Part shown: piece after piece, positions 39,101 through 64,000 of the stretch
Layout: each line of letters opens with the position of its first letter
Numbering within the stretch: position 1 is the first letter of the stretch
Source: Mobula hypostoma
Taxonomy: Eukaryota
Assembly (NCBI RefSeq): GCF_963921235.1
Contig: NC_086108.1
Location: 47,556,001 to 47,620,000 of the forward strand
Direction: 5' to 3'
DNA length: 64,000 nucleotides
The notes under the pieces: model-generated
Databases searched by the model: none
What the model saw: the letters and a program-made list of their open reading frames with translations, nothing else
What the model was told of the DNA's origin: nothing
Translations under genes and position numbers: made by a program

Positions 39101-42100
39101 AAATAATAATTTGTTACTCAGTTAAATGGTAGTTTGTCTTTGTTGCCTTTTAGCTATTTCCATGAACCTTCGGCTAATAGGGACAGCCACTTAATTGAGC
39201 CAAAATGTACTGGCTCTGATGTGTCCCAATTAACTGGAATCCACTGTATTAGCCTGCACACAGGAAGAGCTCCCCAGTTTTTCTTTAAAGTAAGGCTATG
39301 GAAATGTTTGCATCATTCTGAGAGGGTAGATGGGGCTTTGACTTCTCAAGGACAGCACTTCAGAATGTGAAGCATTGCAAGTGTCAGTGCTGATTCTGTG
39401 CTCTCTAGTTTGTGATACCAATTCCATACCAGCAAAAAAAAATCACAAAACTAACCATAAACACATTTCAACAAACCAATAAAAGAAAACATGAGAAACA
39501 CAGCATGAGAACTACAAGATCATTGGCAACTTAGCAAGAATTTCATAAATTTGCACAGACAATCTGAAAGGATATCAAATATTAAAAGCTAAGGTCCCTT
39601 TAAAATTTGAGTCAGTATAACTTTGGTTGGTAATAACATCTTATTTAAATGTAACTGCTTGAACACAAAACACCCAATGTATACTATCAACTTGGAGGAT
39701 TTAATTTCCTGATATTTTCAACATCACCTTTTCTTTCTCCCAAGGCACCTATGCATCTTGGAATTGAAAAACGAATATGTACTGTATGCAGTTGAGATTA
39801 GAGCAATTTGATTTTCTTTTAATTTACATTAGAAATAATATTTTAAAAGCTATCAGAGAATATTACAAAAAGGAAACCATCAAAATATTCCGACTAATTG
39901 TGCCAGTTATTCCAACTTCAAGACCAATCAAATTATAAAAGAACAGAATGGAGAATGGGCTACCTACCAGCTCTTATTTCAACAAAAAGATCTGAAATAA
40001 TCACTGTGGTAACTGGTGTGGACAGACCAAAAATCCAGAGTTAAGTGTTGATAAAAATGTCAGAAAGGCCTTTTTATTGATCTTAACATAGAACAATCAA
40101 GCACAAAGTGAACTATTACAGTCATTACAAACCTGTAGCTCCAAAAGCGTCTAAACATTCCAGCGGCTTGCGCTCCTGAGCCAGCACAGCAAGAGTGCAG
40201 AATATCAATTGTCTATAATAGATTAAAAAACAAAAGTAAGTCCAAGTAATTTTAGTTTGATAGGGATCTTCACTACGACTACAACTGACATAAAAAGGGT
40301 GGGAAATAATTGTTTAAAAGCCAAAAAAATTGTAAGCTTGAAATATGCATTTTTTTTCCCCAAAAAAGGATAATTCAAAGCAGGTTAATCTACTGCAAAC
40401 AATAAACCACATTAATTTGAAAATACTAGTTAAGTAGAAAAGTCAAAAGAAATTTACTTCAGTCATCAATCTGATCAGTTCACTTGATAAAGATGATTTA
40501 TTCTGTGGGAAGTACAAGCCAGTTTCCAGGTAAGAGACAAGTTTTATTTGTTTACAGATACCCATAAATCAATTTTGTCCATAGGTCAGAAAGCACACAA
40601 AATCCTCATTATGGCAACTGCACAGTATTGTAACGAATGGCATCAAAGTACATAAGACTGACGAGAACAATTCGTAAAAGTAGAGTGGAAACCACCTCTG
40701 CCGTTCATAGAAAAGAACATATGGTACGGATGTTCGTTGGACTTTTGGATTTTGTAATATTTTGGTAACTCCATATTATGTAGGGGTGCCCATATATTAG
40801 GCAACCTTAACCTGGGGATGGCGTGTACTGTACTGTCTACATACAGTAGTTAAAAGGACAAAATAAATCTGCACCAATAATCGGCAGTGGTGATGAGCCA
40901 ATGGGCAAGCTGAAGCTACCCTGCCTAATTCATTGTTAGAGTAACAGACAATACATCACCTGTTAGGTTTCATTTTCGGGTTAAAGAAAGAGTCTGTTTT
41001 TTGAGGAGTTGTGTGGTTTGGAAACACATGAACATCAGTGTCAACTTCTTTCATCACTTTAGTGGTTGACAATTGCCCACTAGTGGCTGAAATGGAGAAT
41101 GACAGACAGAAGAAAATAAACACAACTTCTTTGAAAAATGATACTTCAGAAATATTTATGAGATCCCTAAAGGCTGGATCACGTATGTATCTCTTCCCCT
41201 CTGAGATTAAAAAAAATACAAAATAGTAAGATTAGCAAATTAACAAGATAATATTACTTATCATTTTTTATTTGCTGGTTATATGAATAACATGAAACAT
41301 AGGCCCCTAAATTATTCTTATTGTTCTACAACCTTCTGGACAATAGAAACTCAAGTAATTCAACTCTATCCAAATGAAATTCAATTCATGAGTCAACAAA
41401 TCTGTACACAAACTTATTGTCACTTTCTTACTCCTTGATGAATTTCATGGTGTGGCATTAGTTCAAAGATTCAAAGGTGTATTTATTATGAAAGCATGTA
41501 TCCATACACAACTCTGAAATTTGTCTTCTCCAAATAGCCACCAAAGAACATTAAAGTTGTTCAGAGACAAACATCAAACCTACTCCCCCACACAAAAAAG
41601 AACGACATCCAAATCATCAACTCCCAAAAACACCCTCTCCCTGCACAAAAAGAAGTAGAACATCAATCCCCAAAAAAACCCTCCCTTGCACAAAAAAAAC
41701 CAACAGAACACAACAGAACATCAACCTTCAAACGCCCTGCCCTCCCTCGTACAACAGAAAAGGAAAGGGTGATTAAAAAAAAACGTAGGATATAAAAACC
41801 ACGTACAATCCCATTTATGCAGTAACTGTTGTTTGGACAGTTTGTTCTCTATAATACAGACACTTAACTGCAACCAAGTAACACACACAAAATGTTGGAG
41901 GAACTCAGCAGATCAGGCAGCATCTATGGGAGCACCGAACATAGTAAATGACCCCAACAGACTCATAGGTGAAGTATCACCTCACCCAGTGTGGCCTCCT
42001 GTATATCAGTGAGACCCGACGTAGTTTGGGAGACTGCTTTGCCGAGCATCTACACTCCGTCTGCCAGAAAAAGTGGGATCTCTTAGTGGCCACCCATTTT

Positions 42101-45100
42101 AATTCCACTTCCCATTCTGATATGTCCATCCATGGCCTCCTCCACTGTCATGATGAGGCCACACTTGGGTTTGAGGAATAACACCTTGTATTCCATCTGG
42201 GTAGTCTCCAACTGATGGCATGAACATCGCTTTCTCGAACATCCAGTAAAGCCCCCCCAACCCCCCTTCACCACTTCGCATCCACTTTTCCGTCTCTCAT
42301 CTTATCTCCTTGCCCACCCATTGTCTCCCTCTAGTGCTCCTCCTTCTTTTATTCTTTCTTCCATTGTCTTCTGTCTCTTTCACCAATCAACTTCCCAGCT
42401 CTTTACTTCATTCCTCCCCCTCCAGGTGTCACTTATCACCTGGTGTTTCTCTCTCCCCTCCCCCCACCCTTTTAAATCTACTCCTCAGCTTTTTTCCTCC
42501 AGTCCTGCCAAAGGGTCTCAGTCCGAAACATCAACTGTATTCTTTTCCATAGATGCATGTGTTGCTCGGATTTCCAGCATCTGCAGATTTTCTTGTTTGT
42601 GATTTGCTTAATTTCAACCATATTGGCAGTCCCTGTTTACTTCAAGAGCTCAAATTTTTCACATTTCCTTTTAAGGATAATAATCATTTTTGTGTCCTTG
42701 AACTTCCAAAAACTTGATTGTTTCTTGCATATCAAGTTACCATATCCAAAACATTACTCAATCTGTATTGAACTTTGCACCAGTCACACTTACTGTTTTA
42801 ACTTTACAATTCAGTATTTTTGAATAGGAGCTAAGAAAAACTGTAGACATAAGCATCTATGCTAGTTCGAGTGAAATTCATTCATCTCAAACTGCACCTC
42901 ATTTCAATATACACCATGTTATTAAAATATTGCAGATGAGGTTTACCATGATGCAAGTCCAGTGTTAACAAAGCAAGCATTCTTTCCTCTCAAACAACAG
43001 GAATACTGCAGATGCTGGAAATTCAAGCAACATACATCAAAGTTGCTGGTGAAAGCAGCAGGCCAGGCAGCATCTGTAGGAAGAGGTGCAGTCGACGTTT
43101 CAGGCCGAGACCCTTCGTCAGGACTAACTGAAGGAAGAGTGAGTAAGGGATTTGAAAGCTGGAGGGGGAGGGGGAGATGCAAAATGATAGGATAAGACAG
43201 GAGGGGGAGGGATAGAGCCGAGAGCTGGACAGGTGATAGGCAAAAGGGGATACGAGAGGATCATGGGACAGGAGGTCCGGGAAGAAAGACAGGGGGGGGT
43301 GACCCAGAGGATGGGCAAGAGGTATATTCAGAGGGACAGAGGGAGAAAAAGGAGAGTGAGAGAAAGAATGTGTGCATAAAAATGAGTAACAGCTGGGGTA
43401 CGAGGGGGAGGTGGGGCCTAGCGGAAGTTAGAGAAGTCAATGTTCATGCCATCAGGTTGGAGGCTACCCAGACGGAATATAAGGTGTTGTTCCTCCAACC
43501 TGAGTGTGGCTTCATCTTTACAGTAGAGGAGGCCGTGGATAGACATGTCAGAATGGGAATGGGATGTGGAATTAAAATGTGTGGCCACTGGGAGATCCTG
43601 CTTTCTCTGGCGGACAGAGCGTAGATGTTCAGCAAAGCGGTCTCCCAGTCTGCGTCGGGTCTCACCAATATATAAAAGGCCACATCGGGAGCACCGGACG
43701 CAGTATATCACCCCAGTCGACTCACAGGTGAAGTGATGCCTCACCTGGAAGGACTGTTTGGGGCCCTGAATGGTGGTAAGGGAGGAAGTGTAAGGGCATG
43801 TGTAGCACTTAGAAACATAGAAACATAGAAAATAGGTGCAGGAGTAGGCCATTCGGCCCTTCGAGCCTGCACCGCCATTTATTATGATCATGGCTGATCA
43901 TCCAACTCAGAACCCAGCCTTCCCTCCATACCCCCTGACCCCTGTAGCCACAAGGGCCATATCTAACTTCCTTTTAAACATAGCTAATGAACTGGCCTCA
44001 ACAGTTTGCTGTGGCAGAGAATTCCACAGATTCACCACTCTCTGTGTGAAGAAGTTTTTCCTAATCTCGGTCCTAAAAGGCTTCCCCTCTATCCTCAAAC
44101 TGTGACCCCTCGTTCTGGACCTCCCCAACATCGGGAACAATCTTCCTGCATCTAGCCTGTCCAATCCCTTTAGGATCTTATACGTTTCAATCAGATCCCC
44201 CCTCAATCTTCTAAATTCCAACGAGTACAAGCCCAGTTCATCCAGTCTTTCTTCATATGAAAGACCTGCCATCCCAGGAATCAATCTGGTGAACCTTCTT
44301 TGTACTCCCTCTATGGCAAAGATGTCTTTCCTCAGATTAGGGGACCAAAACTGCACACAATACTCCAGGTGTGGTCTCACCAAGGCCTTGTACAACTGCA
44401 GTAGTACCTCCCTGCTCCTGTACTCGAATCCTCTTGCTATAAATGCCAGCATACCGTTCGCCTTTTTCACCGCCTGCTGTACCTGCATGCCCACTTTCAA
44501 TGACTGGTGTATAATGACACCCAGGTCTCGTTGCACCTCCCCTTTTCCTAATCGGCCACCATTCAGATAATAATCTGTTTTCCTATTTTTGCCACCAAAG
44601 TGGATAACTTCACATTTATCCACATTAAATTGCATCTGCCATGAGTTTGCCCACCCACCCAACCTATCCAAGTCACCCTGCATCCTCTTAGCATCCTCCT
44701 CACTGCTAACACTGCCACCCAGCTTCGTGTCATCCGCAAACTTGGAGATGCTGCATTTAATTCCCTCATCCAAGTCATTAATATATATTGTAAACAACTG
44801 GGGTCCCAGCACTGAGCCTTGCGGTACCCCACTAGTCACCGCCTGCCATTCTGAAAAGGTCCCGTTTATTCCCACTCTTTGCTTCCTGTCTGCTAACCAA
44901 TTCTCCACCCACACCAATACCTTACCCCCAATACCGTGTGCTTTAAGTTTGCACACTAATCTCCTGTGTGGGACCTTGTCAAAAGCCTTTTGAAAATCCA
45001 AATATACCACATCCACTGGTTCTCCCCTATCCACTCTACTAGTTACATCCTCAAAAAATTCTATGAGATTCGTCAGACATGATTTTCCTTTCACAAATCC

Positions 45101-48100
45101 ATGCTGACTTTGTCCGATCATTTCACCGCTTTCCAAATGTGCTGTTATCACATCCTTGATAACTGACTCCAGCAGTTTCCCCACCACCGACGTTAGGCTA
45201 ACGGGCCTATAATTCCCCGGTTTCTCTCTCCCTCCTTTTTTAAAAAGTGGGGTTACATTAGCCACCCTCCAATCCTCAGGAACTAGTCCAGAATCTAACG
45301 AGTTTTGAAAAATTATCACTAATGCATCCACTACTTCTTGGGCTACTTCCTTAAGCACTCTGGGATGCAGACCATCTGGCCCTGGGGATTTATCTGCCTT
45401 CAATCCCTTCAATTTACCTAACATCACTTCCCTACTAACATGTATTTCACTCAGTTCCTCCATCTCACTGGACCCTCTGTCCCTTACTATTTCTGGAAGA
45501 TTATTTATGTCCTCCTTAGTGAAGACAGAACCAAAATAATTATTCAATTGGTCTGCCATGTCCTTGCTCCCCATAATCAATTCACCTGTTTCTGTCTGCA
45601 GGGGACCTACATTTGTCTTTATCAGTCTTTTCCTTTTTACATATCTATAAAAGCTTTTACAGTCCGTTTTTATGTTCTCTGCCAGTTTTCTCTCATAATC
45701 TTTTTTCCCCTTCCTAATTAAGCCCTTTGTCCTCCTCTGCTGAACTCTGAATTTCTCCCAGTCCTCAGGTGAGCCACTTCCTCTGGCTAATTTGTATGCT
45801 ACTTCTTTGGAATTGATACTATCCCTAATTTCTCTTGTCAGCCACGGGTGCACTACCTTCCTTGATTTATTCTTTTGCCAAACTGGGATGAACAATTGTT
45901 GTAGTTCATCCATGCAACCTTTAAATGCCTGCCATTGCATATCCACCGTCAATCCTTTAAGTGTCATTTGCCAGTCTATCTTAGCTAATTCACGACTCAT
46001 ACCTTCAAAGTTACCGCTTACACGGATAAGTGCCAGGAGGGAGATCAGTGGGGAGGGATGGGGGGGACGAATGGACAAGGGAGTTGTGTAGGGAGCGATC
46101 CCTGCGGAATGCAGAGAGGGGGGGGAGGGAAAGATGTGCTTAGTGGTGGGATCCCGTTGGAGGTGGCGGAAGTTACGGAGAATAATATGTTGGACCCGGA
46201 GGCTGGTGGGGTGGTAGGTGAGGACCAGGGGAACCCTATTCTTAGTGGGGTGGTGGGAGGATGGAATGAGAGCAGATGTACGTGAAATGGGGGAAATGCG
46301 TTTAAGAGCAGAGTTGATAGTGGAGGAAGGGAAGCCCCTTTCTTTAAAAAATGAAGACATCTCCCTCGTCCTAGAATGAAAAGCCTCATCCTGAGAGCAG
46401 ATGCGGCGGAAACGGAGGAATTGCGAGAAGGGGATGGCGTTTTTGCAAGAGACAGGGTGAGAAGAGGAATAGTCCAGATAGCTGTGAGAGTCAGTAGGCT
46501 TATAGTAGACATCAGTGGATAAGCTGTCTCCAGAGACAGAGACAGAAAGATCTAGAAAGGGGAGGGAGGTGTCGGAAATGGACCAGGTAAACTTGAGGGC
46601 AAGGTGAAAGTTGGAGGCAAAGTTAATAAAGTCAACGAGTTCTGCATGCGTGCAGGAAGCAGCGCCAATGCAGTTGTCGATGTAGCGAAGGAAAAGTGGG
46701 GGACAGATACCAGAATAGGCACGGAACATAGATTGTTCCACAAACCCAACAAAAAGGCAGGCATAGCTAGGACCCATACGGGTGCCCATAGCTACACCTT
46801 TAGTTTGGAGGAAATGGGAGGAGCAAAAGGAGAAATTATTAAGAGTAAGGACTAATTCCGCTAGACGGAGCAGAGTGGTGGTAGAGGGGAACTGATTAGG
46901 TCTGGAATCCAAAAAGAAGCGTAGAGCTTTGAGACCTTCCTGATGGGGGATGGAAGTATATAAGGACTGGACATCCATGATGAAAATAAAGCGGTGGGGG
47001 CCAGGGAACTTAAAATCATCGAAAAGTTTAAGAGCGTGAGAAGTGTCACGAACATAGGTCGGAAGGGATTGAACAAGGGGTGATAAAACAGTGTCGAGGT
47101 ATGCAGAAAAGAGTTCGGTGGGGCAGGAGCAAACTGAGACAATAGGTCGGCCAGGACAGGCAGGTTTGTGGATCTTGGGTAGGAGGTAGAAACGGGAAGT
47201 GCGGGGTGTGGGAACTATAAGGTTGGTAGCAGTGGAACTGCTCTTTCCTCTATCGTTTTTTGCTCAGATTCTCTTCCAGGGGTGTTTGAATTGAATTGAA
47301 CTGACTTTATTACTTAGATCTTTCACATACATAAGGAGCAAAATCTTTACATTACAGTTCCGTCTAAATGTGCAATGTTCAATTTATAGTAATTTATAAT
47401 AAATAGTATGTACAAAGGATAGTCAATATAACATAGAAATACAGTTGTGTCAGCATGAATTAATCAGTCTGATGGCCTGGTGGAAGAAGCTGTCTCAGAG
47501 CCTGTTGATCCTGGCTTTTATGCTGTGATACTGTTTCCCGGATGGTAGCAGCTGGAACAGTTTGTGGTTGTGGTGACTCGGGTCCCCAATGATCCTTCAG
47601 GCCCTTTTTACACACCTGTCTTTCTATATGTCCTGAATAGTGGGAAATTCACGTCTACAGATGCTCTGGGCTGTCCACACCACTCTCTGCAGAGTCCTGT
47701 GACTGAGGGAAGTACAGTTCCCATATGAGGCAGTGATGCAGCCAGTCAGGATGCTCTCAATTGTGCCCCTGTAGACAATTCTTAGGATTTGGGGGCCCAT
47801 ACCAAACCCCTTCAACCATCTGAGGTGAACGAGGTGCTGTTGTGCCTTTTTCACTACTCAGCCAGTATGTACAGACCACGTGAGATCCTCAGTGATGTTT
47901 ATGCCGAGGAATTTAAAGCTGTTCACTCTCTCAAACCCAGATCCATTGATGTCAATAGGGGTTAGCCTGTCTCCATTCCTCCTGTAGTCTACAACCAGCT
48001 GCTTTGTTTTTGTGACATTGAGGGAGAGGTTGTTTTCTTGACACAACTGTGTCAGAGAGATGACTTCTTCTCTGCAGGCCACCTCGTTATTGTTTGAGAT

Positions 48101-51100
48101 TATTCCAATCAGTGTAGTGTTGTTAGCAAATTTAATTAGCAGATTGGAGCTGTGAGCAGCAACACAGCCATGGGTATACAGAGAGTAAAGGAGGGGGCTT
48201 AGTACACAGCCCTGAGGCAGTCAGAGGGAACCCACTCCTACCACCTGCCAGCGATCTGACAGGAAGTTTTTTGGCATCTCAACTAATTCTTGTAAATCTT
48301 AAAACACAAAGTGCCAGCAGAAGACCAGAATAGGAATGGCATATCCAGCAACTGAAGCCTGCAATGATTTGAAGAAATCACAGCTCCTCTGCATGCTAAG
48401 TCCAATTCACACCTCGATTTTACATCCTCCACACCCACTCCCCAACCCCTATCCCATCAATCTATTTACTCAGCAGATCTTATTCTCCTTATACTATAAG
48501 ACCATAAGATATAGGAGCAGAAGGAGGCCATTTGGCCCATCAAGACTGTGCTGATCCAATTCCTTCAGACATCCCCTCTCCGCTGCCTTCTCCCCATACC
48601 CTTTGTTGCCCAGGCTAATCAAGAACCTATCTATCTCTGCTTTAAATGCACCCAACAAATTGGTCTCCACAGCCGCTTGTGGCAACAAATTCCACAGATT
48701 TACCACCCTCTGACTAAAGTAATTTCTCCGCATCTCTGTTCTAAATGGACATCCTTCAATCCTGAAGTTGTGCCTTCTTGTCCTGCACTCCTCTACCATG
48801 GGAAATAACTTTGCCATATCTAATCTGTTCGGGCCTTTTAACATTTGGAATGCTTCTATGAGATTCCCCCTTATTCTCCTGAACTCCAGGGAATACAGCT
48901 CAAGAGCTGCCAGACGTTCCTCATACAGTAACCCTTTCATTCCTGGAATTTGCCTTCTTCACCACTGACTCAACCTGGAGACTCCCAAGTCCCTTTGCAT
49001 CTCTGCATTTTGAATTCTCTCCACATCTAAATAATAGTCTTCCCGTTTACTTCTTCCACCAAAGTGCATGACCATACACTTTCCAACATCGTATTTCATT
49101 TGCCACTTCTTTGCCCTAAACCTTCTTTCTGCAGGTTCTCTGTTTCCTCAACACTACCCGCTCCTCCACCTACCTTTGTATCATCAGCAAATTTATACCT
49201 GTAAGGCACAAGTATTTGGCCTACTGGCTCCAAGCCAGCACCCATGAAAGCAAGCTCATTACTTCCATCTCCTATCATTTCCTCCTCTTTTCCCTGGATC
49301 TTACTCTGTCCCAACAAGTCAACTAATTCCCCTTTGATTCTGCTAGTCATTAATGAACAACAAATAGTTATTTGTAGTTGCCAGACTGCCTGCACATGAA
49401 ATCAAGCACCTACAATCCCACACCTGAAGAATGTGCAAATCCTACATGGACAACATTTGAGGTCAGAATCAAACCGGTCCCTGGAGCTATCAGGCAGCAC
49501 CACCACCATGTAAATTTACTTAGAGATATAGCTCGGAATCGGCCCTTCAAGCCACACTACCCAGCAACGCCCGATTTAACCCTAGCTTAATCACGGGACA
49601 ATCTTGCAACAACCAATTCACCTCCTAAGCGGTACATCTTTGGACTGTGGGAAGAAACTGAAGCACTCAGAGAAAACCTATGCATTCCACAGGTAGGACG
49701 TATAAACTCCTTACAGATGACATCAGGACTGAGCTGCAAACTCCGACATGCTGAGCTGTAAAAGCGCCATGCTAATCACTAGGTTGCCGTGGCCTCCCCA
49801 ATGCAGAATCACAGCCTCCTTGCCCAGAGCAACAAAAACACCAAATCTGGCCCACAAGACCACGAGTGAATATCAAATCTAAAAATGCTAGAAACACTCA
49901 GCAAGTCAGGTAACATCTGCACAGAGAACAAGAGTTAATTTCTGATCAAAGACCCTCCGTCAGAATTAGGAAAGGGAAAACAAATTGGATTTAAGCTGTA
50001 GAGAGAATCAAAATGCAAACTATTATCATATTTTCTGGAAATGTCCCATTATCAAAGACTATTGGAGTGGGATACACAATGTCCTACAAGACATCTTTAA
50101 ATGTGAAATACCCTTGGAAAGTAAGACCATATATTTTGGGTATATACCTCAAGAATGGTTGAAAAGAGATAAATATTTAATGAATGTACTGCTGGTGGCT
50201 GGTAAAAAGACCCTTACCAGGAAATGGTCATCACAGGAGAGCCCAACTTTAAATGTATAGATGGAAATTACAATGGACATTTACAAAATGGAGAAGATAA
50301 CAGCATTTGTTAATCATAAGTTGGAACAACTTGATTCATACTGGGACAAATGGTTTAACTACATAATACCTCATAGGCCTGATTTTATTCTCACAAGTCA
50401 ATGAGTATGTTGTAAAAAAAAATCACTCCTTACTTTGTACATAGTTTTCTTCTTTTGATTGTTCTTTCTTTCCTCTCCTTTCTATAAGTGTATACTCAGA
50501 TAAATATTAAGTGGAGAAACCATAGAAAAACTACAGCACAGAAACAGGCCTTTTGGCCCTTCTTGGCTGTGCCGAACCATTTTCTGCCTAGTCCCACTGA
50601 CCTGCACACGGACCATATCCCTCCATACACCTCCCATCCATATATCTGTCCAATTTATTCTTAAATGTTAAAAAAGAACCCGCATTTACCACCTCGTCTG
50701 GCAGCTCATTCCACTCTCCCACCACTCTCTGTGTGAAGAATGTTCCCTTTAAACTTTTCCCCCTTCACCCTTAACCCATGTCCTCTGGTTTTTTTCTCCC
50801 CTTGCCTCAGTGGAAAAAGCCTGCTTGCATTCACTCTATCTATACCCATCATAATTTTATATATCTCTATCAAATCTCCCCTCATTCTTCTACGCTCCAG
50901 GGAATAAAGTCCTAACCTATTCAACCTTTCTCTGTAACTGAGTTTCTCAAGTCCCGGCAATATCCTTGTAAACCTTCTCTGCGCTCTTTCAATCTTATTA
51001 ATATTCTTCCTGTAATTTGGTGACCAAAACTGCACACAGAAAAACATAGAAAACCTACAGCAAAGTACAGGCCCTTCAGCCCACGATGCTGTGCCGAAAA

Positions 51101-54100
51101 TGTACTTATTCTAGAAATTACCTAGGGTTACCCATAGCTCTCTATTTTTCTAAGCTCCATGTGATGAGATTTGTGACAAATATGACAATATGATATATAT
51201 GTACAGTATCTGAAATACATCTTATGGAAAGTTTTGTTTGATAACGAACTTCAATAAAAAATAAATTACAAAAAAAAAAGCTGTGGAGAGGATGGGAAAG
51301 AACAGAAATGTACAGGCTGTGCTAGTGCAGAGACCAAAACATACAGTAATACAGACGGATGAAGAAAAAGAATAGCCCTTAACTCGGCAGTGGAATTATC
51401 GGGGCACCGTCATGACAGTGTTTCTGTAGCAAGCTATTCCTGTTTTTACAAGGCCGAGTTGCTAGCTCGACGCTCAACCCGACTTGGATTCGAACTTGGG
51501 AAACTTCGCTCTGGAGTCCGGCACTGATATTATTGTGCCACCAAGCGGGACACAGATGGATGACCTAGAGCAGGAATGGCCTTTCACAGTTTTGAAATCT
51601 CTTTGCATTCTTTAACTATCCTCATTAATCGATCACCCAGATAACTTCATCAACACCTCATTCCCATAGCCATCCTGGCCTCACTCTATCCAAGATATTC
51701 TGTGCTATTCACTCCCATCCCACCAATAAAACAGAGAAGCAGAATTAAGCAATTCAGCCCATCAAGTCTGCCCCACCATTCAATCATTTTCTCCCCGCAA
51801 CCTACGACACCCTTACTAATCAAGAATCTAACCACCTCCACTTTAAATATATCCAATGATTTGGCCTCCACAGCTGTCTGTGGCAATGGATTCAATAGAG
51901 TCACCAGCATCTGGTGAAAGAAATCCCTCCTCATCTCTGTTTTAAAAGTATGTCCTGTTATTCTGAGGCTGTGATCTCTAGTTCTAGACTCCCACTACTG
52001 GAAACATCTTCTCCATATCCACTCTATTTAGTAATATTCAATAGGTTTCAATGAGAATTCCCTTCATTTTTCTAAGCTCCAGCAAGTACTGGCCTAGAGT
52101 CATCAAATGTTCCTCATATGTTAATCCTTTCATTACTGGGATCATTCTTGTGAACCTCCCCTGGACCCTTGCTAGCACATCCTTTCTTAGATACGAGAAA
52201 ACTGCTCACCATACCCCAAATATGACCTGACCAATGCCTTATGAAGCCTCAAGCTGAAGAGGGAAGGGTAACAACAATGTGGATGAATCATTCAGTAACA
52301 TGTCAGCATAAGGGCAGAGCCCAGTACAACAAGAATGAGTGAGGTGAGGAGTGCAGTAGTGATAGGGATTCCATAGTTTGAGGAATAGACAGGAGTCTCT
52401 GTGAATGTGAAAGAAAGACCAGGATGATTCCCAGGATCAGTTATGTCTCAGATCAGGTCCACAGCATTCTAAAGGAGGAGGGTGAATAGCATAAGTTATA
52501 AAACCATAAGATATAGGAGCAGAATTAGGCCATGTGGCCCATTGAGTCTGCTCTGCCATTTCATCACGGCTGATCCAATTTTCCTCTCATGTACATATTG
52601 GTATCAATGACATAGGCAGGAAAAGGGATGAGATCCTGAAGAGAGAATATTGAGAGTTAGGTAGAAAGCTGAAAAGGGTAGTAATCTCTGGATTGCTGCA
52701 AGTGCCACGCACTAGTGAGGGTAAAGGTAGAATGATCTGGCAGGTGAATGTGTGGCTGAGGAATTGGTGCAGGGAGCAGGATTTCAGATTTCTGGATCAT
52801 TGTGATCTCTTCTGGAGAAGGTTTGACCTGTACAAAGAGGACGGAGCACCACGGAAGAGTAGCAGTCAGAGTGACACTATTGCTGCTCAGAGCTGGGAGT
52901 TCAATTCCGGTGTCCTCTGTAAGAAAGTTTGTATATTCTTTTCCTGAGTGCGTGGGTTTCTTCCAGGTGCACTGGTTTTCTCCCACAGTCCAAAGACTTA
53001 CTGGTTAGTAGGTTAGTTGGTCATTGTAAATTGTCCTGCGGCTAGGCTGGGGTTAAACAGGTGGATCTCTCGGCAGTGCAGGTTCATTGGGCCAGAAGGG
53101 CCTGTTCCACACAGTATTTCTGAATAAACAATAAATAATACACCAGATCTCGAGAGGCACCAATATCCTTGCTGGAGCTGTTGGGGAGAGCTTCAATTAA
53201 TTTGGCAAGGGGGTGGGAACCTGAATGATAGGGCTGAGGATGGAGCAGTTGGTATACAAGTAGATGCTGTGTGTAGTGAGACTGTGTGGAAGGACAGGCA
53301 GATGATAGGGCCAAATTGCAATCAGGATGTTGAAGGGTAACATAAGAGGCAAAACTGAAAAGTGTGATAAAAACAGGAGTGATGGTGTTATATTTGAATG
53401 CACACAGTGTACAGAATAAGGTAGATGATCTTAGAGCAAAGTTAGAAAATTGCAGGCATGACAATGTGGGCATTGCTGTGCTGTGGCTGAAAAAAGACCC
53501 TGATGGGAAGGAGGGAGGTGGGGGATGGATGGGGCGGGGGGACAGCTCAGAGATGGACCTGGGGGGGGGGGCTACACACTGAAAAATACATATCTATTAC
53601 ATACTGTACATAATATAAACACACAAACACACAGTAGATCTAGTTAAAAGGAACACATCAGGACCAATGTATTTTGGCCCAATTAAGTAACTGCCCAATT
53701 AGCCGAAGTTTCATGGAAATAGTTGAAAAGGTATAAAAAAGAAAAACTGAGCACCAAATTATGTATTTAATTGAAATACGGAACAAAGTATAACACTACC
53801 AATACTACTCCAGTACTATAAAACTGTGCATTAGTTCCTAATAGTTATTGACATAGGAATTCATCCAGTGTAGGCAATGCACAAAATCAGCACAGATACC
53901 TAGTGTAGATAACAGACTGCCTCCATACAATGAAGGCTGTTGCATCCTCCAAACTTTCATTTTCATTGTAACATTCAGGATAATTGTTCATATGTTAAAA
54001 TTCTTCATAGTTCCTAACTTGTTTTCACTCCTGGCCATTTCTGGTATCTCCAAGCCTAAATGCTTGAAATCATAGTCAGCAAAGCAGTTTTATTTGTCTT

Positions 54101-55899
54101 ACTGCTTGTTATTGCCAACCATCACCGCTTTTTGAACACAACTGCACGCAATTGATGCTATTTAAGAACCATTCCTCTAATAGTGTAGCATCTAAAGGCC
54201 ATACAAGCATGCACAACTGATGAGAGTTAGAACCTGTCAGCAAAAGTCTCCTTACCCGATTAAGTGGCATAGTGTCCCAAATAAATGAAGGGAATCCAGG
54301 CAATTTTTTCTATTAGTTTTTAGTCTGTAAAGGTTGCCTCAAATAAGTGGCAACCCCAATTAACTGATAATATCTAATCAACCAATCATATGGCAGCAAC
54401 TCAATGCACAAGTAGGCGTGGCCAAGAGTTCAGTTGTTCTTCAGACCAAACATTAGAATGGAGAAGAAATCTAAGTGACTTTGACCATGGAATGATTGTC
54501 AATGCCAGATGGGGTGGTTTGAATAATTCAGAAACTACTGATCTGGGATTTTCATGCATAATAGTCTCTAGAGTTTACAGAGAATAGGGATAGAAACAAA
54601 AAAACATCCACTCGGCAGTAGTTCTGTAGGTGAAAGCACCTTGTTAATGAGAGAGGTCAGAGGAGAATGGCCAGATTGGTTTGAGCTGACGGGAAGGCAA
54701 CAGTAACTCAAATATCCAAATGTTACAACGGTGGTGTGCAGAAGAGCATCTGTGAACACACAGCACATCAAACCTTGAAGTGTATGAGCTTTTGCAGCAG
54801 AAGACCTCTCCAAGTTCCACTCCCATGCCTAACGAAGTAGCCGCTGAGTGTGTATATACTCAGTGACCACGTCTTTAGGTATATATACGATATTGTAATT
54901 TATAGTGTATTTATGTCTTGCACTGTACTGCTACCACAAAACGACAAATTTCATTACATACAGTGCATCAGTGATAATATACCCCATTTTGAATGCCAAA
55001 AAATTAAGATTCACACCTAATGAAATCCATCAGCAAGATACCTCTACACTGACTCATCATTCACAGAGCATTGATAACGTTAAGTTGGATCAAGAGTTCA
55101 GCTCTTTCTACACTGTTTTACTGAAAATCCCCAGGATAGGAATTACAGGGACCCAAGCTCCCTCTACACTATTTTTTCAAATGATCACACAAAAATATGG
55201 GTTAAATTCAGAATAAAGCTCCCTTCACACTTCTCCAATAAACACACCTACTTGGGCAGAGACAAATCAGTGCATATTGTGTCCACTGGACAGATTGAGC
55301 CTTAATGGAATACTGAACACTGCGGCAGTTGGAGTACATTCTTCATTTACTTTAAGACACCCTAACTAGAAAAAAAATGTTTCCTCTCCTTTTCTGTTCT
55401 TCAAAAGATCTCCAACCTGAAATATTAACATAAATGCTGCCTGTCCTACTGAATGTTTCCAGCATTTTCTGTTTTAATTTCAGAATTCCAGCATCTACAT
55501 TTTATTTTGATTTTTGCATATGTTGTTTTTAAAGAACGTTGGTGTGGACACATTTTCCTGCAGGAGCCACTGAACAGCAAAGTTTAGTCGGAATTCTGGG
55601 CCTAGTCAGAATTCATGCCATCTCTGTTGACCCAGACTGGTCAGCTTCAGTCAATTTGAAATGGCTGCTGGGGTGTTAGTTGCTATTTAGCTTTTAAATA
55701 TATATTATTGGAAAAAAAAGTACAATTAAATTTCCAACATGTCTGATCACTCAAACTTATTACACACACCTCCAGTGAAGCTGGCTTCTGTATCTCCTTT
55801 GTTCAAATGTCGTGTTATGTGACTGATCATGTCTGTTCTGCGTGCAATAGTAGCGGAACAGACAATACAATGGTAGTGTGCTCCAATCCGCACTGGAAC
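3063..55899 (-). CDS. TRMT1L: TRMT1L (tRNA guanine-N2 methyltransferase 1-like), partial gene: 9 coding exons in the window, probably orthologous to human exons 5-13; both ends are outside the window
   Basis: Joined exons 55770-55899, 40960-41086, 40133-40212, 29987-30236, 26962-27174, 16449-16639, 14930-15008, 6431-6597 and 3063-3146 give a continuous frame. All junctions are GT-AG with compatible phases. The peptides match TRMT1L as I recall it ([68 protein letters not shown]). Exon numbering is inference. Confidence 0.96.
3335..3660 (-). mobile_element. Ancient Deu-domain SINE (SacSINE1/DeuSINE-like)
   Basis: ggcagccaatttgcacac..ccacaaacagtaatgtgatgatgaccagataa resembles the reverse complement of the Deu domain as recalled; a tRNA-like head lies at the right end. 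Confidence 0.7.
3880..4570 (+). mobile_element. Old CR1 LINE 3' fragment
   Basis: Degenerate homology to the 3' part of the CR1 copies at 32.5 and 43.8 kb; ends cctatttcttgtgctcttgt. Confidence 0.7.
4780..5033 (+). mobile_element. Penelope-like element terminal fragment with a variant hammerhead (4933-4968)
   Basis: agcc-ctgccga-agggtctcaggcc-gaaac-gtc-gact, followed by the family terminus gctgagttcctccagcattttgtgtgtgttg. Confidence 0.85.
6431..6597 (-). CDS. TRMT1L: TRMT1L exon ([38 protein letters not shown]...SHSSQ)
   Basis: 167 bp; acceptor ctttaag, donor gtcggt. Confidence 0.94.
7852..8243 (+). repeat. ERV 5' LTR
   Basis: Direct repeat of 11788-12121; 13 mismatches in a 96-nt block compared by eye; right boundary approximate. 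Confidence 0.85.
8244..8261 (+). promoter_or_regulatory. Primer-binding site, tRNA-Gln type
   Basis: cagaggtcccactgagat versus the complement of the tRNA-Gln 3' end, TGGAGGTCCCACCGAGAT (15/18); directly after the 5' LTR. Confidence 0.75.
8833..11183 (+). mobile_element. CR1 LINE ORF2 (APE endonuclease and RT), degenerate with an internal deletion, inserted in the ERV
   Basis: [58 protein letters not shown]; stops and frameshifts; 3' UTR missing. Confidence 0.92.
11186..11600 (+). pseudogene. env: Retroviral env transmembrane subunit remnant (gamma/epsilon-type)
   Basis: [11 protein letters not shown]...[28 protein letters not shown], then a frameshift, then [19 protein letters not shown]: the ISD motif plus a CX6CC remnant. 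Confidence 0.85.
11788..12121 (+). repeat. ERV 3' LTR, preceded by a polypurine tract (11775-11787)
   Basis: aaaaaggagggaa then TGTG...TAACA; direct repeat of the 5' LTR. Confidence 0.85.
12619..12782 (-). mobile_element. Young ~160-bp Penelope-like terminal insertion with a TSD
   Basis: 5 differences from 42992-43152 over about 160 nt; flanked by the direct repeat aaatacagaaaa (12610-12621 and 12783-12794). Confidence 0.9.
12717..12752 (-). ncRNA. Minimal type I hammerhead ribozyme (PLE-associated)
   Basis: Minus strand reads AGUC-CUGACGA-AGG(gucucgg)CCU-GAAAC-GUC^GACU: intact core CUGANGA/GAAA, stem I AGUC/GACU, stem II AGG/CCU, loopless palindromic stem III (ACGU), GUC cleavage triplet. 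Confidence 0.88.
13490..13795 (+). mobile_element. Ancient Deu-domain SINE
   Basis: gtattgagggagcgctgca..ttaaactgaggcccc..gatcattatcatattgaggtttgtg resembles the recalled SacSINE1/Deu body. Confidence 0.65.
13960..14510 (+). mobile_element. Rex1/Babar-like LINE 3' fragment
   Basis: [18 protein letters not shown]...RFKNSYF; tail tgacaataaac. Confidence 0.75.
14930..15008 (-). CDS. TRMT1L: TRMT1L exon ([27 protein letters not shown])
   Basis: 79 bp; acceptor ttatttcag, donor gtaggt. Confidence 0.95.
15489..16266. mobile_element. Non-autonomous hAT element (Charlie/Buster-type TIRs) with an internal second hAT module (15619-16129)
   Basis: TIRs cagtggtccccaacc / ggttggggacccctg; perfect 8-bp TSD tactataa (15481-15488, 16267-16274). 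Confidence 0.92.
16449..16639 (-). CDS. TRMT1L: TRMT1L exon ([31 protein letters not shown]...[18 protein letters not shown])
   Basis: 191 bp; acceptor tttccctgcag, donor gtaaac. Confidence 0.96.
17138..17343. mobile_element. Fold-back (inverted) pair of Penelope-like termini
   Basis: Left arm 17175-17247 and right arm 17266-17343 are imperfect reverse complements of the same PLE terminus. Confidence 0.8.
18270..18632 (+). mobile_element. CR1 3' fragment
   Basis: [10 protein letters not shown]...FFTQ frame and CR1 3' UTR gggctgaaggacctgtactgttctat. Confidence 0.8.
18700..19320 (-). mobile_element. Probable RTE-clade LINE 5' UTR fragment
   Basis: Minus-strand aaatctggagtgaatcccctaaggtggctggatgtcattgaacatccttccggcag resembles recalled RTE 5' leaders; not verified. 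Confidence 0.45.
19775..21125 (-). mobile_element. RTE-clade LINE, 5'-truncated and degenerate
   Basis: [53 protein letters not shown]; short (taac)n tail. Confidence 0.9.
22171..22990 (-). mobile_element. Non-autonomous retroposon-like repeat with a (tctgaa)n tail and internal degenerate gacctcc repeats
   Basis: ttcagattcagattc tail and recurrent gacctccag/gacct motifs; family not identified. Confidence 0.4.
23045..23442 (+). mobile_element. CR1 3' fragment
   Basis: [14 protein letters not shown] / GDLIEV-like frame and 3' tail tatgttctgttatg. Confidence 0.75.
24058..24717. mobile_element. hAT MITE (TIR tagggttgccaac) inserted in the transposase C-terminus
   Basis: TIRs tagggttgccaac / gttggcaacccta; TSD gtgaggtg / gtgaagtg (7/8); homologous to 15619-16129. 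Confidence 0.88.
24437..24687 (-). mobile_element. Rex1-like LINE 3' end inserted in the MITE
   Basis: [27 protein letters not shown], (gactat)n tail, tat duplication; absent from the 16-kb MITE copy. Confidence 0.82.
26962..27174 (-). CDS. TRMT1L: TRMT1L exon ([23 protein letters not shown]...[13 protein letters not shown])
   Basis: 213 bp; acceptor gggatag, donor gtaatg; contains the Trm1-family DPFG motif. Confidence 0.96.
27700..27865 (-). pseudogene. hAT transposase C-terminal dimerisation-domain fragment
   Basis: [21 protein letters not shown]...KYNPDV...QQHKSH*. Confidence 0.75.
29987..30236 (-). CDS. TRMT1L: TRMT1L exon ([20 protein letters not shown]...[14 protein letters not shown])
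   Basis: 250 bp; acceptor tttttgcag, donor gtgagt; overlaps ORF 29983..30261. Confidence 0.96.
30388..35470 (-). mobile_element. Old near-full-length CR1 LINE (ORF1 remnant, EN, RT, 3' UTR), interrupted by a younger CR1
   Basis: [28 protein letters not shown] remnants at 34.05-34.75 kb; many stops. Confidence 0.85.
32476..34051 (-). mobile_element. Younger 5'-truncated CR1 nested in the old CR1
   Basis: ORFs 33522..34037 and 32690..33499 ([18 protein letters not shown]); (cttatggt)n-type tail; cattat duplicated at 32470-32475 and 34058-34063. Confidence 0.92.
35552..36732 (+). mobile_element. CR1 fragment whose middle is replaced by an inverted DNA-element segment (36140-36430)
   Basis: ORF 35567..36067 is CR1 RT; CR1 resumes at about 36447 ([12 protein letters not shown]). 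Confidence 0.85.
36843..37131 (+). mobile_element. tRNA-derived V-SINE (HE1-like)
   Basis: Box A/B-like head (tagcatagtg, gagttcaattcc), V-domain-like tttcctctcgcagtccaaaga, CR1-like tail gggctggaagggcctg. Confidence 0.75.
37135..37478 (-). mobile_element. Penelope-like terminal fragment with a decayed hammerhead (37197-37232)
   Basis: Minus strand agtc-ctaccaa-agggtcttgaccc-aatac-atc-gact. Confidence 0.8.
38394..39246. mobile_element. Tigger/pogo-like MITE inserted in a Deu-SINE (SINE halves at ~38300-38391 and 39248-39410)
   Basis: TIRs cagtggatttcagctaattggg / cccaattaactggaatccactg, followed by TA; related copies at 53631-54368 and 36140-36430. Confidence 0.82.
40133..40212 (-). CDS. 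TRMT1L: TRMT1L exon ([30 protein letters not shown]-binding motif I region)
   Basis: 80 bp; acceptor tattatag, donor gtttgt; phase 2 to 1. Confidence 0.95.
40960..41086 (-). CDS. TRMT1L: TRMT1L exon ([43 protein letters not shown])
   Basis: 127 bp; acceptor ccatttcag, donor gtgatg; phase 1 to 2. Confidence 0.93.
41462..41805 (-). repeat. Retroposon tail with degenerate ~45-50 bp tandem units (aacatcaa..cccaaaa..ccctccc..cacaaaaa)
   Basis: Four imperfect units visible between 41570 and 41760; (ttcaaaga) tail at the left end. Confidence 0.5.
41880..42601 (+). mobile_element. Penelope-like fragment (GIY-YIG end, UTR, decayed hammerhead 42501-42536) with inverted 5' segments
   Basis: [22 protein letters not shown] on +; 41880-41985 carries the family terminus and GIY-YIG-proximal sequence in the opposite orientation. 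Confidence 0.85.
43090..43125 (-). ncRNA. Minimal type I hammerhead ribozyme (PLE-associated)
   Basis: 36 nt identical to 12717-12752: AGUC-CUGACGA-AGGgucucggCCU-GAAAC-GUC^GACU. Confidence 0.88.
43418..43891 (-). CDS. ORF encoding the PLE GIY-YIG endonuclease, with an N-terminus derived from the CR1 3' UTR (expression unknown)
   Basis: KCYTC, VIY..YIGET, R, H, E and N positions are present; the ATG lies inside the CR1 tail. Confidence 0.6.
   Translation of the reverse strand: MIIINGGAGSKGRMAYSCTYFLCFYVSKCYTCPYTSSLTTIQGPKQSFQVRHHFTCESTGVIYCVRCSRCGLLYIGETRRRLGDRFAEHLRSVRQRKQDLPVATHFNSTSHSHSDMSIHGLLYCKDEATLRLEEQHLIFRLGSLQPDGMNIDFSNFR
43811..46015 (-). mobile_element. Young 5'-truncated CR1 LINE with an uninterrupted RT frame, nested in the PLE
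   Basis: About 700 codons without a stop ([26 protein letters not shown]); (tttctatg)n tail at 43811-43830; 5' microhomology with the PLE. Confidence 0.95.
43907..46978 (-). CDS. Chimeric 1023-aa ORF: PLE RT fused in frame to CR1 ORF2 RT (mobile-element junction product)
   Basis: ORF track; the junction at about 46015 reads ...[20 protein letters not shown]. Confidence 0.55.
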   Translation of the reverse strand: MDVQSLYTSIPHQEGLKALRFFLDSRPNQFPSTTTLLRLAELVLTLNNFSFCSSHFLQTKGVAMGTRMGPSYACLFVGFVEQSMFRAYSGICPPLFLRYIDNCIGAASCTHAELVDFINFASNFHLALKFTWSISDTSLPFLDLSVSVSGDSLSTDVYYKPTDSHSYLDYSSSHPVSCKNAIPFSQFLRFRRICSQDEAFHSRTREMSSFFKERGFPSSTINSALKRISPISRTSALIPSSHHPTKNRVPLVLTYHPTSLRVQHIILRNFRHLQRDPTTKHIFPSPPSLHSAGIAPYTTPLSIRPPHPSPLISLLALIRVSGNFEGMSRELAKIDWQMTLKGLTVDMQWQAFKGCMDELQQLFIPVWQKNKSRKVVHPWLTREIRDSINSKEVAYKLARGSGSPEDWEKFRVQQRRTKGLIRKGKKDYERKLAENIKTDCKSFYRYVKRKRLIKTNVGPLQTETGELIMGSKDMADQLNNYFGSVFTKEDINNLPEIVRDRGSSEMEELSEIHVSREVMLGKLKGLKADKSPGPDGLHPRVLKEVAQEVVDALVIIFQNSLDSGLVPEDWRVANVTPLFKKGGREKPGNYRPVSLTSVVGKLLESVIKDVITAHLESGEMIGQSQHGFVKGKSCLTNLIEFFEDVTSRVDRGEPVDVVYLDFQKAFDKVPHRRLVCKLKAHGIGGKVLVWVENWLADRKQRVGINGTFSEWQAVTSGVPQGSVLGPQLFTIYINDLDEGIKCSISKFADDTKLGGSVSSEEDAKRMQGDLDRLGGWANSWQMQFNVDKCEVIHFGGKNRKTDYYLNGGRLGKGEVQRDLGVIIHQSLKVGMQVQQAVKKANGMLAFIARGFEYRSREVLLQLYKALVRPHLEYCVQFWSPNLRKDIFAIEGVQRRFTRLIPGMAGLSYEERLDELGLYSLEFRRLRGDLIETYKILKGLDRLDAGRLFPMLGRSRTRGHSLRIEGKPFRTEIRKNFFTQRVVNLWNSLPQQTVEASSLAMFKRKLDMALVATGVRGYGGKAGF
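47285..48268 (-). mobile_element. Rex1/Babar-like LINE 3' part, degenerate
   Basis: [63 protein letters not shown]; (caatt)n tail. Confidence 0.88.
48495..49196 (-). mobile_element. CR1 3' fragment with internal deletions
   Basis: ORF 48494..48940; [10 protein letters not shown]. Confidence 0.88.
49510..49795 (-). mobile_element. V-SINE (HE1-like)
   Basis: Reverse-complement homolog of 36843-37131 (tctttggactgtgggaagaaac). Confidence 0.72.
50006..51277 (+). mobile_element. 5'-truncated L1-clade element (ORF2 C-terminal cysteine-rich domain, 3' UTR, polyA), containing CR1 tails at 50516-51160
   Basis: [16 protein letters not shown] motif; aataaa then an A-run; TSD aagctgtagagag / aagctgtggagag (49993-50005, 51278-51290). 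Confidence 0.85.
50516..51160 (-). mobile_element. Two tandem CR1 3' ends nested in the L1 3' UTR
   Basis: ORF 50706..51047 ([20 protein letters not shown]); a second tail starts at about 51039. Confidence 0.85.
51363..51551 (-). mobile_element. Short tRNA-derived SINE
   Basis: Box A tggtggcacaat and box B gttcgaatcc on the minus strand; TSD acagacggatga / acagatggatga (51351-51362, 51552-51563). Confidence 0.78.
51728..52250 (-). mobile_element. CR1 3' fragment
   Basis: [31 protein letters not shown]. Confidence 0.82.
52330..53500 (+). mobile_element. CR1 ORF1 (SGNH esterase-like) and ORF2 start, interrupted by a CR1 tail (52496-52588) and a V-SINE (52843-53140)
   Basis: [49 protein letters not shown]2 start [15 protein letters not shown]. 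Confidence 0.82.
53631..54368. mobile_element. Tigger/pogo-like MITE (same family as 38394-39246, opposite orientation, one end truncated)
   Basis: Reverse-complement homology to 38394-39246 along its length. Confidence 0.75.
54375..54851 (+). mobile_element. Tc1-derived non-autonomous element (N-terminal HTH remnant)
   Basis: [41 protein letters not shown]-like cctaacgaagtagccgctgagtg. Confidence 0.8.
55770..55899 (-). CDS. TRMT1L: TRMT1L exon (C2H2-type zinc finger: [43 protein letters not shown])
   Basis: 130 bp; acceptor ctctttacag, donor gtgtgt; phase 0 to 1. Confidence 0.93.
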
Positions 55900-62100: not shown

Positions 62101-64000
62101 TAGATTGTAATTATGAAGACATTAATAAAATTTTTCAAGACTTTTACATTGAACTTTATAAATCTCAGTTTCCAGCTGATCCTTCTCAAATGAATGCCTT
62201 TTTACAAAAGATTGATCTTCCTAGAATATCTGTTGAAGATCAACAAACTCTTGATACTCCTATTACTGAAAAAGAAATTCAGAAAGCTATTCTTTCAATG
62301 CAATCTGGTAAAGCTCCTGGATTGGATGGTTTTTTTGTAGGATTTTTATGAAAAATTTGAAAAATTGCTTTCTCCATACATGTTGGAAACACTTAAAGAT
62401 TATTTTTTGTTAGGAGAGTTACCTCCCACATTTTATGAAGCTTCTATTTCATTATTAAATGTGGATGCTAAAATTCTTTCAAAAATAATGGCTAATTGAC
62501 TGGAGAATATTCTAGCTAAAATTATCTCTCAGGATCAAACAGGTTTTGTAAAGGGCCGTTATTCCTTCTCTAATACTCGGAGACTGTTAAATGTTATATA
62601 CCCATCCTTTTCTAAGACTCCCCAATGTGTTGTTTCTCTTGATGCTGAAAAGGTATTTGATAGAGTTGAATGGAAATACTTATTTAACGTCTTAGAGAAA
62701 TTCAGCTTTGGTACTAATTGTAATAAGTGGATTAGAATGATATATAAAAGCCCTATTGCTACTGTTATTACTAATAATTGTAGATCTCCTTTTTTTCGAC
62801 TTTCACGGGGTACGAGACAAGGATGTCTGTTAAGTCCCCTGCTGTTTAAGTTGGTGTTGGAACCCTTGGCCATTGCACTTCGTGAAGCTAAAGACATCCA
62901 TGGAATTTCCATAAATGGGACTATTCTTAAGATCTCCCTTTATGCCGATGATCTCTTCATTTATGTTTCGAATCCTGAAGAATCCATTCCTAGTTTACTG
63001 AAATTATTAAATGAATTTGGAAAGTTTTCAGGATATAAACCAAACCTTCATAAAAGTGAATTACTTCCTCTAAATGATTTTGCTTTGATATATGATGACA
63101 CCCTTTTTAAAGTTACGGACTCTTAAATATTTAGGTATTATTATCACTAAAAATTACAGAGACCTTTATAGAGCTAATTTGGTTCCTTTAGTGGATTTTA
63201 TGAAGCAATTATTTCGTAGATGGAGTCCACTCACACTTTCGTTAGCTGGCCGAATTCATGCAGTTAAAATGATGATTCTACCAAAACTTTTATATGTATT
63301 TCAAAATATTCCTATTTTTTTAACTAAGAAGTTTTTTGAACAGGTTGATTCTATTATTTCATCTTTTGTTTGGAATAATAAAAGACCAAGAATTGGGAAA
63401 TATCATTTACAAAAATTAAAAAAGGATGGAGGTCTTGCTCTGCCTAATACTAATGGGCTGTTAATATACATTATATGTGTTCTTGGTTATACTGGGCTGA
63501 TAGAAATGAATGAGCATCTTGGGTTGATTTGGAATTGAAAGCTGTGAAGCAATTTTACTTAACTTTGTTATTAGGAGCTTTTTTATCTGTACAACTGGCC
63601 AAAATTTCTAATCTAAATTTATATCCTACGATTAAGCATTCATTACAAATTTTGTACCAGTTTCATAATTTTTTTTAATCTCAAAAAATTTAACCTTCTT
63701 AGTTTAATCTATCGAAATTATTTATTTAAACCTTCACTAAGTGATCCTACCTTTTCTCTTTGGAGGAATAAACGAGTCTATTCCTTCATGGATCTGTTCC
63801 AAGAACGCCGATTGATGTCTTTTGAGAAATCAGTAACTAAATATTCTCTCTCGTACTCACATTTCTGACAAGAATATTTAAGTAATTTTGAATATATACA
63901 GGATTCTGACCTGTTAGACATTATTTTAAAAATGAATCCTTTAGTGAAAGGTTTTCTTGGGAAAATTTATAATTATCTATTACAACAGTACAATTATCCT
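59116..64000 (+). mobile_element. L1-clade LINE with its 5' end (5' UTR, ORF1 59235-59963, T-rich spacer, degenerate ORF2 from ~60900), running off the window
   Basis: ORF1 DLEATSSRNNIRIVGLKEG..IERAHR; ORF2 ISWNV, GGDFNC, SDHAP, GKAPGLDGF, LDAEKVFDRVEW, RGTRQGCLLSP, LYADD; ORF2 has stops and frameshifts. Confidence 0.93.

Follow-up and report, generated by a model that had tools for sequence, protein, structure and literature searches.

Sequence of a minimal type I hammerhead motif in a dead Penelope-like element within a TRMT1L intron of Mobula hypostoma

The DNA analyzed here (the window) is a stretch of 64,000 nucleotides (nt) from contig NC_086108.1 of Mobula hypostoma. Its minus strand carries the gene TRMT1L, one intron of which contains, in sense orientation, a Penelope-like element (PLE). 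The pseudo-long terminal repeat (pseudo-LTR) of this element, downstream of the open reading frame (ORF) for reverse transcriptase (RT) and GIY-YIG, includes a short stretch with the layout of a hammerhead ribozyme (Table 1). Judged by its letters and its position, 43090-43125 is a genuine minimal type I hammerhead motif of the kind known from PLE pseudo-LTRs, as a first-pass annotation of this DNA had claimed. The minus-strand letters and coordinates given there (43125-43090) were exact on re-reading, and the distance of about 290 nt from the GIY-YIG stop codon was measured as 292 nt between TAG (43420-43418) and stem I.

All core positions of the motif agree with the consensus 'NNN CUGANGAH G..C GAAAN palindrome NUH NNN' of PMC4209133. 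For a scan of the window we re-implemented the RNAmotif descriptor published in Fig S7 of that paper. It recovered the CUGANGA ... GAAA-N-N-U-H core together with stems I and II, and it matched two sites in the 64 kb, at 43121 and 12748, both on the minus strand and with an identical motif. The same descriptor found any match in 11 of 1000 dinucleotide-shuffled versions of the window (mean 0.011), and a stricter descriptor of our own matched none of 500 shuffles. The Rfam check proposed by the first-pass annotation was negative: hammerhead families gave no match, the whole window having no Rfam matches at the gathering score and positions 42900-43400 having three at E<=10, none to a hammerhead family. 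The isolated 38-mer is also of ordinary stability (z -1.24; 22 of 200 shuffles equally stable). These last two results would suit a chance match unrelated to hammerheads, an explanation that is effectively refuted because published layouts are near-identical (PMC4209133) and two matches were found against 0.011 expected; the pseudo-LTR position is the published one as well. The motif was absent from the viral_contigs and genome_contigs collections in which we looked for it.

The loopless, palindromic stem III of the dimer type is confirmed as ACGU, and the letters of the 4-bp stem I stand, with the addition that the stem can be extended to 5 bp through U43126.G43089 (43126-43122 with 43093-43089). 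Stem II had been read as three pairs, AGG/CCU, and that register is off by one. The preferred fold leaves A43114 unpaired and forms a 4-bp stem, GGGU/GCCU (43113-43110 with 43105-43102; pairs G43113.U43102, G-C, G-C, and U.G), closed by the loop CUCG. The folding probability of this inserted-A register is 0.96, versus 0.02 for the 3-bp register. Among seven copies in the window, the closing pair of the inserted-A register (G102-pyrimidine113) holds in six (four G-C, two G.U), and the pair of the earlier register (A101-113) holds in two and is broken in five.

Variation in the wider family points the same way. We aligned contigs of public runs to 42965-43215 at 80% likeness, which yielded 44,847 pieces from run X1, possibly the source sample, and 7,072 from run X9, which we guess to be RNA; depth shares from these runs are weighted contig values, not allele frequencies. 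Two raw-read runs, X21 and X22, gave zero pieces matching 42965-43215, and runs X17-X20, sharing less than 0.1 of the words, were left out of the alignment. Within 43089-43126, a second letter exceeds 10% of depth only at 43102, where U>C accounts for 23% of depth in X1 and 21% in X9. This change turns the G.U into a canonical G10.1-C11.1 pair in the inserted-A register and breaks an A-U pair of the 3-bp register. The 10.1/11.1 pair is thus G.U in the copy flagged by the first-pass annotation and in most of the young family, and G-C in 23% of depth and in four of the seven window copies. PMC4209133 gives an extra base after position 9 and a G10.1-C11.1 pair as hallmarks, and several of its examples (cichlid, Xenopus 1, Clonorchis 1, Schistosoma mansoni 1, and Latimeria 1) have G10.1.U11.1. 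We therefore reject the 3-bp stem, on its folding probability, the 43102 change, and the five broken copies, and favor an unpaired extra A after A9 followed by a 4-bp stem, the layout of Cervera and De la Pena 2014. RNAalifold folded the seven window copies weakly and into an unrelated structure (-3.8 kcal/mol).

Table 1. Coordinates of the hammerhead motif, its carrier element, and other features of the window
Feature	Position	Strand	Remark
Minimal type I hammerhead motif	43089..43126	minus	fits the consensus of PMC4209133 Fig S3
Stem I strands AGUC and GACU	43125-43122 and 43093-43090	minus	direct reading
Core CUGACGA	43121-43115	minus	
Inserted A	43114	minus	
GGGUCUCGGCCU	43113-43102	minus	stem II and loop region
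GAAAC	43101-43097	minus	GAAA is 43101-43098
GUC triplet	43096-43094	minus	predicted cut after C43094
Palindrome ACGU	43098-43095	minus	loopless stem III
Penelope-like element	~47241 to 42991	minus	bounded by 10-bp target-site duplication
5' copy of 10-bp target-site duplication	47242..47251	minus	
5'-truncated Penelope-like RT region	46014..47241	minus	57.5% identity to P0008 residues 371-741
Inserted 5'-truncated non-LTR retroelement	43811..46013	minus	PF00078 (RVT_1), E 1.3e-38
C-terminal part of ORF: second half of Zn-finger linker and GIY-YIG	43418..43810	minus	PF01541, E 4.5e-05
Pyrimidine-rich untranslated pseudo-LTR part, stop codon to hammerhead	43127..43417	minus	
Element tail 3' of hammerhead, ~100 nt	42991..43088	minus	42991 is a common family end
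3' copy of 10-bp target-site duplication	42981..42990	minus	
Second young copy, tail-only, 166 nt	12619..12784	minus	identical hammerhead (C3 at 12748)
TRMT1L intron holding the PLE in sense	41091..55767	minus	flanking exons 55902-55768 and 41090-40944
Further mobile-element remains (Pfam)	57360-57812; 25060-25611; 62500-63123; 47627-48220	plus; minus; plus; minus	

The carrier retains the order RT, then C-terminal GIY-YIG. The last part of its ORF is 49.6% identical to residues 774-902 of P0008, a full-length relative of 904 residues, and the N-terminal ~370 codons and the 5' pseudo-LTR are missing. A second RT-bearing element, presumably CR1-like, splits the cysteine linker; CKR stands before the insertion and KCYTC after it, matching the C-x4-C-x2-C of relatives. 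A linker of the form C-x(2-5)-C-x2-C marks Neptune and Nematis (Craig et al. 2021, PMC8557442), and by this linker, which is also found in Nematis, we provisionally assign the carrier to the Neptune type. The flagged copy is dead: it is 5'-truncated, frameshifted in a C-run near 46130-46115, mutated at the RT active site (YIDN, versus YIDD or FIDD in six aligned full-length relatives), and split by the inserted retroelement. It has one pseudo-LTR only, lacking the two pseudo-LTRs or partial tandem of active elements.

Of 4604 candidates in a search restricted to proteins of at least 666 residues, 862 were relatives at E<=1e-20. Among the 120 of these that were listed, most are nameless, and the named ones come from corals, molluscs, a tick, and a newt. 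The full-length proteins closest to the translated RT stretch P0003 (46100-47239, minus strand) share 53-59% identity with it and are mostly nameless, and the named ones near the top come from a cnidarian; closeness to cnidarian relatives may reflect slow evolution or horizontal transfer. With the RT as query, none of 78 candidate stretches in metagenome_contigs was confirmed as a locus. A stop-free frame of 1118 codons (47263-43907, minus strand) runs from the truncated PLE RT through the frameshifted stretch into the RT of the inserted element and on to that element's own stop. We rejected its reading as a designed fusion protein; as a product of the frameshift and an in-frame insertion, it looks like a chance fusion of two retroelements.

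The motif had been placed at the element terminus, a placement that does not hold: some 100 nt separate it from the 3' end at 42991. The intervening tail is predicted to form a long interrupted hairpin (z -1.8; 7 of 200 shuffles equally stable). A target duplication of up to 12 bp, overlapping the terminal T run, borders the second young copy on either side; this copy differs from the flagged copy at 5 of 166 aligned letters. The description of the element as young can accordingly be kept for the family, which is fairly young given these two copies, and dropped for the flagged copy, which is dead. At least five older, decayed tails occur elsewhere in the window. An older PLE copy lies on the plus strand at 41875-42602, with a GIY-YIG end at 41990-42264 and a decayed hammerhead near 42501-42535. 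A short inverted piece, 41986-41875, has GIY-YIG joined directly to a tail that starts about 15 nt past the predicted cut.

Can the flagged motif cleave? A single strand cannot close stem III, because this stem has no loop. In the isolated 38-mer the core GACG is predicted to pair with CGUC in a long inactive hairpin, and with at least 15 natural upstream bases a hairpin formed by 43140-43128 and 43121-43110 hides the core with a probability of 0.85-0.92. The monomer is thus predicted to be inactive, its core hidden by folding, and the lone intronic copy at 43090-43125 is likely inert. The pyrimidine tract upstream ends in CAG (43130-43128), a possible splice acceptor whose use would free stems I and II. 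In the Penelope of Drosophila virilis, an intron ends at helix I. A conserved splice acceptor immediately before the AUG at 43074 is unsupported, since GAG is the triplet made by the most frequent variant at 43076 (45% of depth). This AUG is likewise unsupported as an ORF start, as its frame closes after 17 codons in the flagged copy.

Published assays bear on cleavage through dimers and on cleavage with protein. In PMC4209133 a single motif showed no cleavage, and dimers and trimers were weakly active. In PMC11167929 (Frangieh et al. 2024) the hammerhead of an Anolis element cut only when the element's protein was added; changing C3 or G8 singly abolished cleavage, which the double mutant recovered in part. 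The same paper has reverse transcription starting downstream of the hammerhead, producing the tail. We consider it probable, from modeled folding and by analogy with these systems, that intact tandem transcripts of the family undergo slow cleavage assisted by dimerization or by protein, and that solo copies are inert passengers. This reading is preferred because the predicted folding agrees with the results of PMC4209133 and PMC11167929. As regards the first-pass claim that the family processes its own RNA by self-cleavage, the low published activity of dimers and the dependence on protein argue for caution.

In the proposed sequence of events, transcripts of intact elements would be tandem or partial-tandem, each pseudo-LTR contributing one hammerhead. 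Two motifs would swap their stems I, and the two ACGU palindromes would pair head to tail, so that a double hammerhead supplies the missing stem III. Cleavage after GUC would need such paired motifs or refolding of the RNA by the element's own protein, and slow, probably protein-assisted cleavage would trim the long precursor to unit length. Reverse transcription would start about 100 nt 3' of the cut site; because the start lies that far downstream, the template would be uncleaved at this point and all insertions would carry the motif. Every insertion, even a 166-nt scrap, would then hold the hammerhead as a passenger, followed by neutral decay.

Several results weigh against assisted cleavage as the role of the motif. 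For isolated motifs, the double hammerhead is predicted at -11.5 kcal/mol versus -30.3 kcal/mol for the best two-strand fold, and for the C variant the values are -16.7 versus -34.1 kcal/mol; since the double hammerhead is far from the minimum, dimerization alone may not suffice. Anolis hammerhead mutants insert normally in vitro, and the RNA-seq data described in PMC11167929 include no reads beginning or ending at the Anolis cut site. Naiad elements spread without canonical hammerheads (PMC8557442). The seven window copies contain no compensatory double change, and their paired fraction was no higher than in the shuffle control. Among close subfamilies the motif is not significantly more conserved than its surroundings: variation reaches at least 10% of depth at 1 of its 38 sites and at 14 of 172 sites outside it (42991-43200; one-sided Fisher p=0.21). 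Finally, six CpG positions of the motif, G8 and C17 included, differ in 5.0-7.3% of X1 depth, and the loop CpG at 43107 differs in 7.2%; the motif CpGs vary no less than the loop CpG, and inserted copies therefore appear to decay neutrally. Variants at the motif CpGs (43093-43116) reach 1.7-3.2% in X9, roughly half of their frequency in X1. The lower variation may reflect younger copies, X9 being guessed to be RNA, or may come from assembly.

The normal insertion of Anolis mutants and the lack of reads ending at the site would be expected if the motif were kept as a structured RNA signal, with cleavage incidental or absent in cells. Roles in protein binding, in the start of reverse transcription or translation, or in a splice-linked switch could be imagined; Cervera and De la Pena (PMC4209133) leave other functions possible, the active fold is predicted to be unfavorable, and no depth step occurs at 43094 in the contigs, which cannot show RNA ends. 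This explanation has to account for the retention of the catalytic letters (CUGANGA, GAAA, UH) across 56 motifs from 40 metazoan species (PMC4209133) and for the Anolis C3/G8 double mutant, which partly regains the cleavage that the single mutants lose. On balance we think it unlikely, while taking it more seriously than the other alternatives.

Comparison of more distant relatives bears on selection. Loose ends of aligned contigs were counted, and the six best-supported positions are given here for X1 (487 further entries cover X1 and X9). These six are the element end at 42991 (264 pieces) and five positions at the edges of stem I: 43089 (401), 43090 (161), 43123 (190), 43124 (196), and 43125 (502). 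Where pieces break off at 43089-43090, the loose sequence looks like the tail of a different subfamily. Alignments of the more distant subfamilies thus hold throughout the hammerhead block and are lost at its two edges, a pattern that points to selection in the source elements. Some of the loose ends at 43123-43125 may mark insertions that start at the 5' edge of stem I, and diverged subfamilies would explain them equally well. On preferential conservation of the core among young copies, which the first-pass annotation had named as a check, the outcome is mixed: close subfamilies do not bear it out, and more distant ones keep the hammerhead block.

Depth is highest over the motif and falls in the linker that follows, and the hammerhead and tail together have two to three times the depth found just upstream. 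Such an excess could arise if the hammerhead tail were a selfish passenger, with short tail-only units, similar to retrozymes or short interspersed elements, replicating by means of borrowed Penelope protein. The 166-nt tail-only insertion has its own target duplication, vertebrate non-LTR retrozymes derive from pseudo-LTRs, with one chondrichthyan included (bioRxiv 10.64898/2026.07.22.740005), and Craig et al. (PMC8557442) raise parasitism as a possibility. We nevertheless hold this to be improbable: the flagged copy is continuous with the ORF end, 5' truncation alone predicts short copies, and no tandem unit is present in the window around either intact copy.

The surrounding gene was identified by Pfam scans of 187 unmasked frames, which detected three TRM-domain exons. 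One exon, compared with TRMT1L, has 96-99% identity to sharks and skates, 87% to a chimaera, and 76-88% to bony fish and others. Nine exons of TRMT1L map to the minus strand from 55902 to 3055, the entire window falls within the gene, and from this both intact hammerheads are intronic and sense to the gene, 30 kb apart; decayed copies are found on both strands. Splicing tolerates slow hammerhead cleavage within introns (PMC2995048, citing Dye 2006 and Fong 2009), so the intronic sense position says little about activity. It does leave room for efficient cis cleavage by the monomer in the 3-bp register, cutting TRMT1L pre-mRNA at this locus, given that the core is intact and U43102 permits the AGG/CCU pairing. 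The loopless stem III that one strand cannot close, the probability of 0.02 for that register and its disruption in five of seven copies, the predicted hiding of the core, and the lack of cleavage by single minimal motifs in the assays of PMC4209133 make this very improbable. Equally doubtful is a variant in which, given the abundance of the family and the perfect core in many of its copies, solo intronic copies pair through ACGU, either in the same pre-mRNA, as with 43121 and 12748, or in different transcripts, and cut host pre-mRNAs. If true, this would be a transposon ribozyme modifying RNA processing genome-wide in sharks and rays.

Other repeats were identified in the window. Two inverted repeats of about 290 bp in pieces (36136-36422 and 38428-38712), about 90% complementary and 2 kb apart, are probably the ends of a non-autonomous DNA transposon. 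Further Pfam matches to mobile-element remains are PNMA/gag-like pieces, a Spin-doc zinc finger, and two RT fragments.

Assisted cleavage of intact tandem transcripts, with inert solo copies, remains the reading we prefer, and the motif itself closely resembles known ones. The closest is that of Neptune in Acropora digitifera (PMC4209133), which shares the core, inserted A, 4-bp stem II, 4-nt loop, and ACGU. Like the minimal hammerheads of that paper, the present motif is of type I, with an extra unpaired base between 9 and 10.1, G at 10.1, a short stem I, and a U-rich upstream flank, and it lies in the 3' pseudo-LTR of 5'-truncated copies in a setting of thousands of solo copies. What sets it apart from them is its stem II, which at 4 bp is at the short end of the published range, and its host, an elasmobranch; Table S1 and Fig S3 of PMC4209133 include no cartilaginous fish. 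Relative to Neptune elements in PMC8557442, the present copy differs by truncation, frameshift, and interruption. Poseidon of Anolis carolinensis (PMC11167929) likewise has a hammerhead at the junction of pseudo-LTR and ORF, and its tail past the cut is 85-92 nt in the coordinates of that paper, versus about 100 nt here. Poseidon is a member of the Penelope/Poseidon clade, with an ORF that begins at stem II, whereas the present element lacks an AUG there and, unlike Poseidon, has the Zn-finger linker of Neptune/Nematis.

Animal non-LTR retrozymes (Li et al. 2026, bioRxiv 10.64898/2026.07.22.740005) are similarly type I units from pseudo-LTRs, and that report places pseudo-LTR-derived retrozymes in one chondrichthyan genome. 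These are tandem non-coding arrays, whereas the present copies are dispersed singles, one of them attached to an ORF. Among the papers matched by searches on PLE hammerheads in sharks and on PLEs in elasmobranch genomes, we found no description from sharks or rays. Work by Lunse, Weinberg and Breaker (RNA Biol) reportedly finds, going by its title, that such variants cleave as dimers. Li et al. 2026 or Lunse et al. may already hold the present family.

Overall, this is a new instance, in a dead element, of a motif type known since 2014, and it is an ordinary one. With minimal hammerheads of PLE pseudo-LTRs established for that long, the remaining questions are whether cleavage takes place in living cells and whether the element depends on it. 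On cutting in cells, the locus at 43090-43125 is one example and not an answer. The family has very many near-identical copies, many of them sense in introns of expressed genes, and would thus bring statistical power to the question of cleavage.

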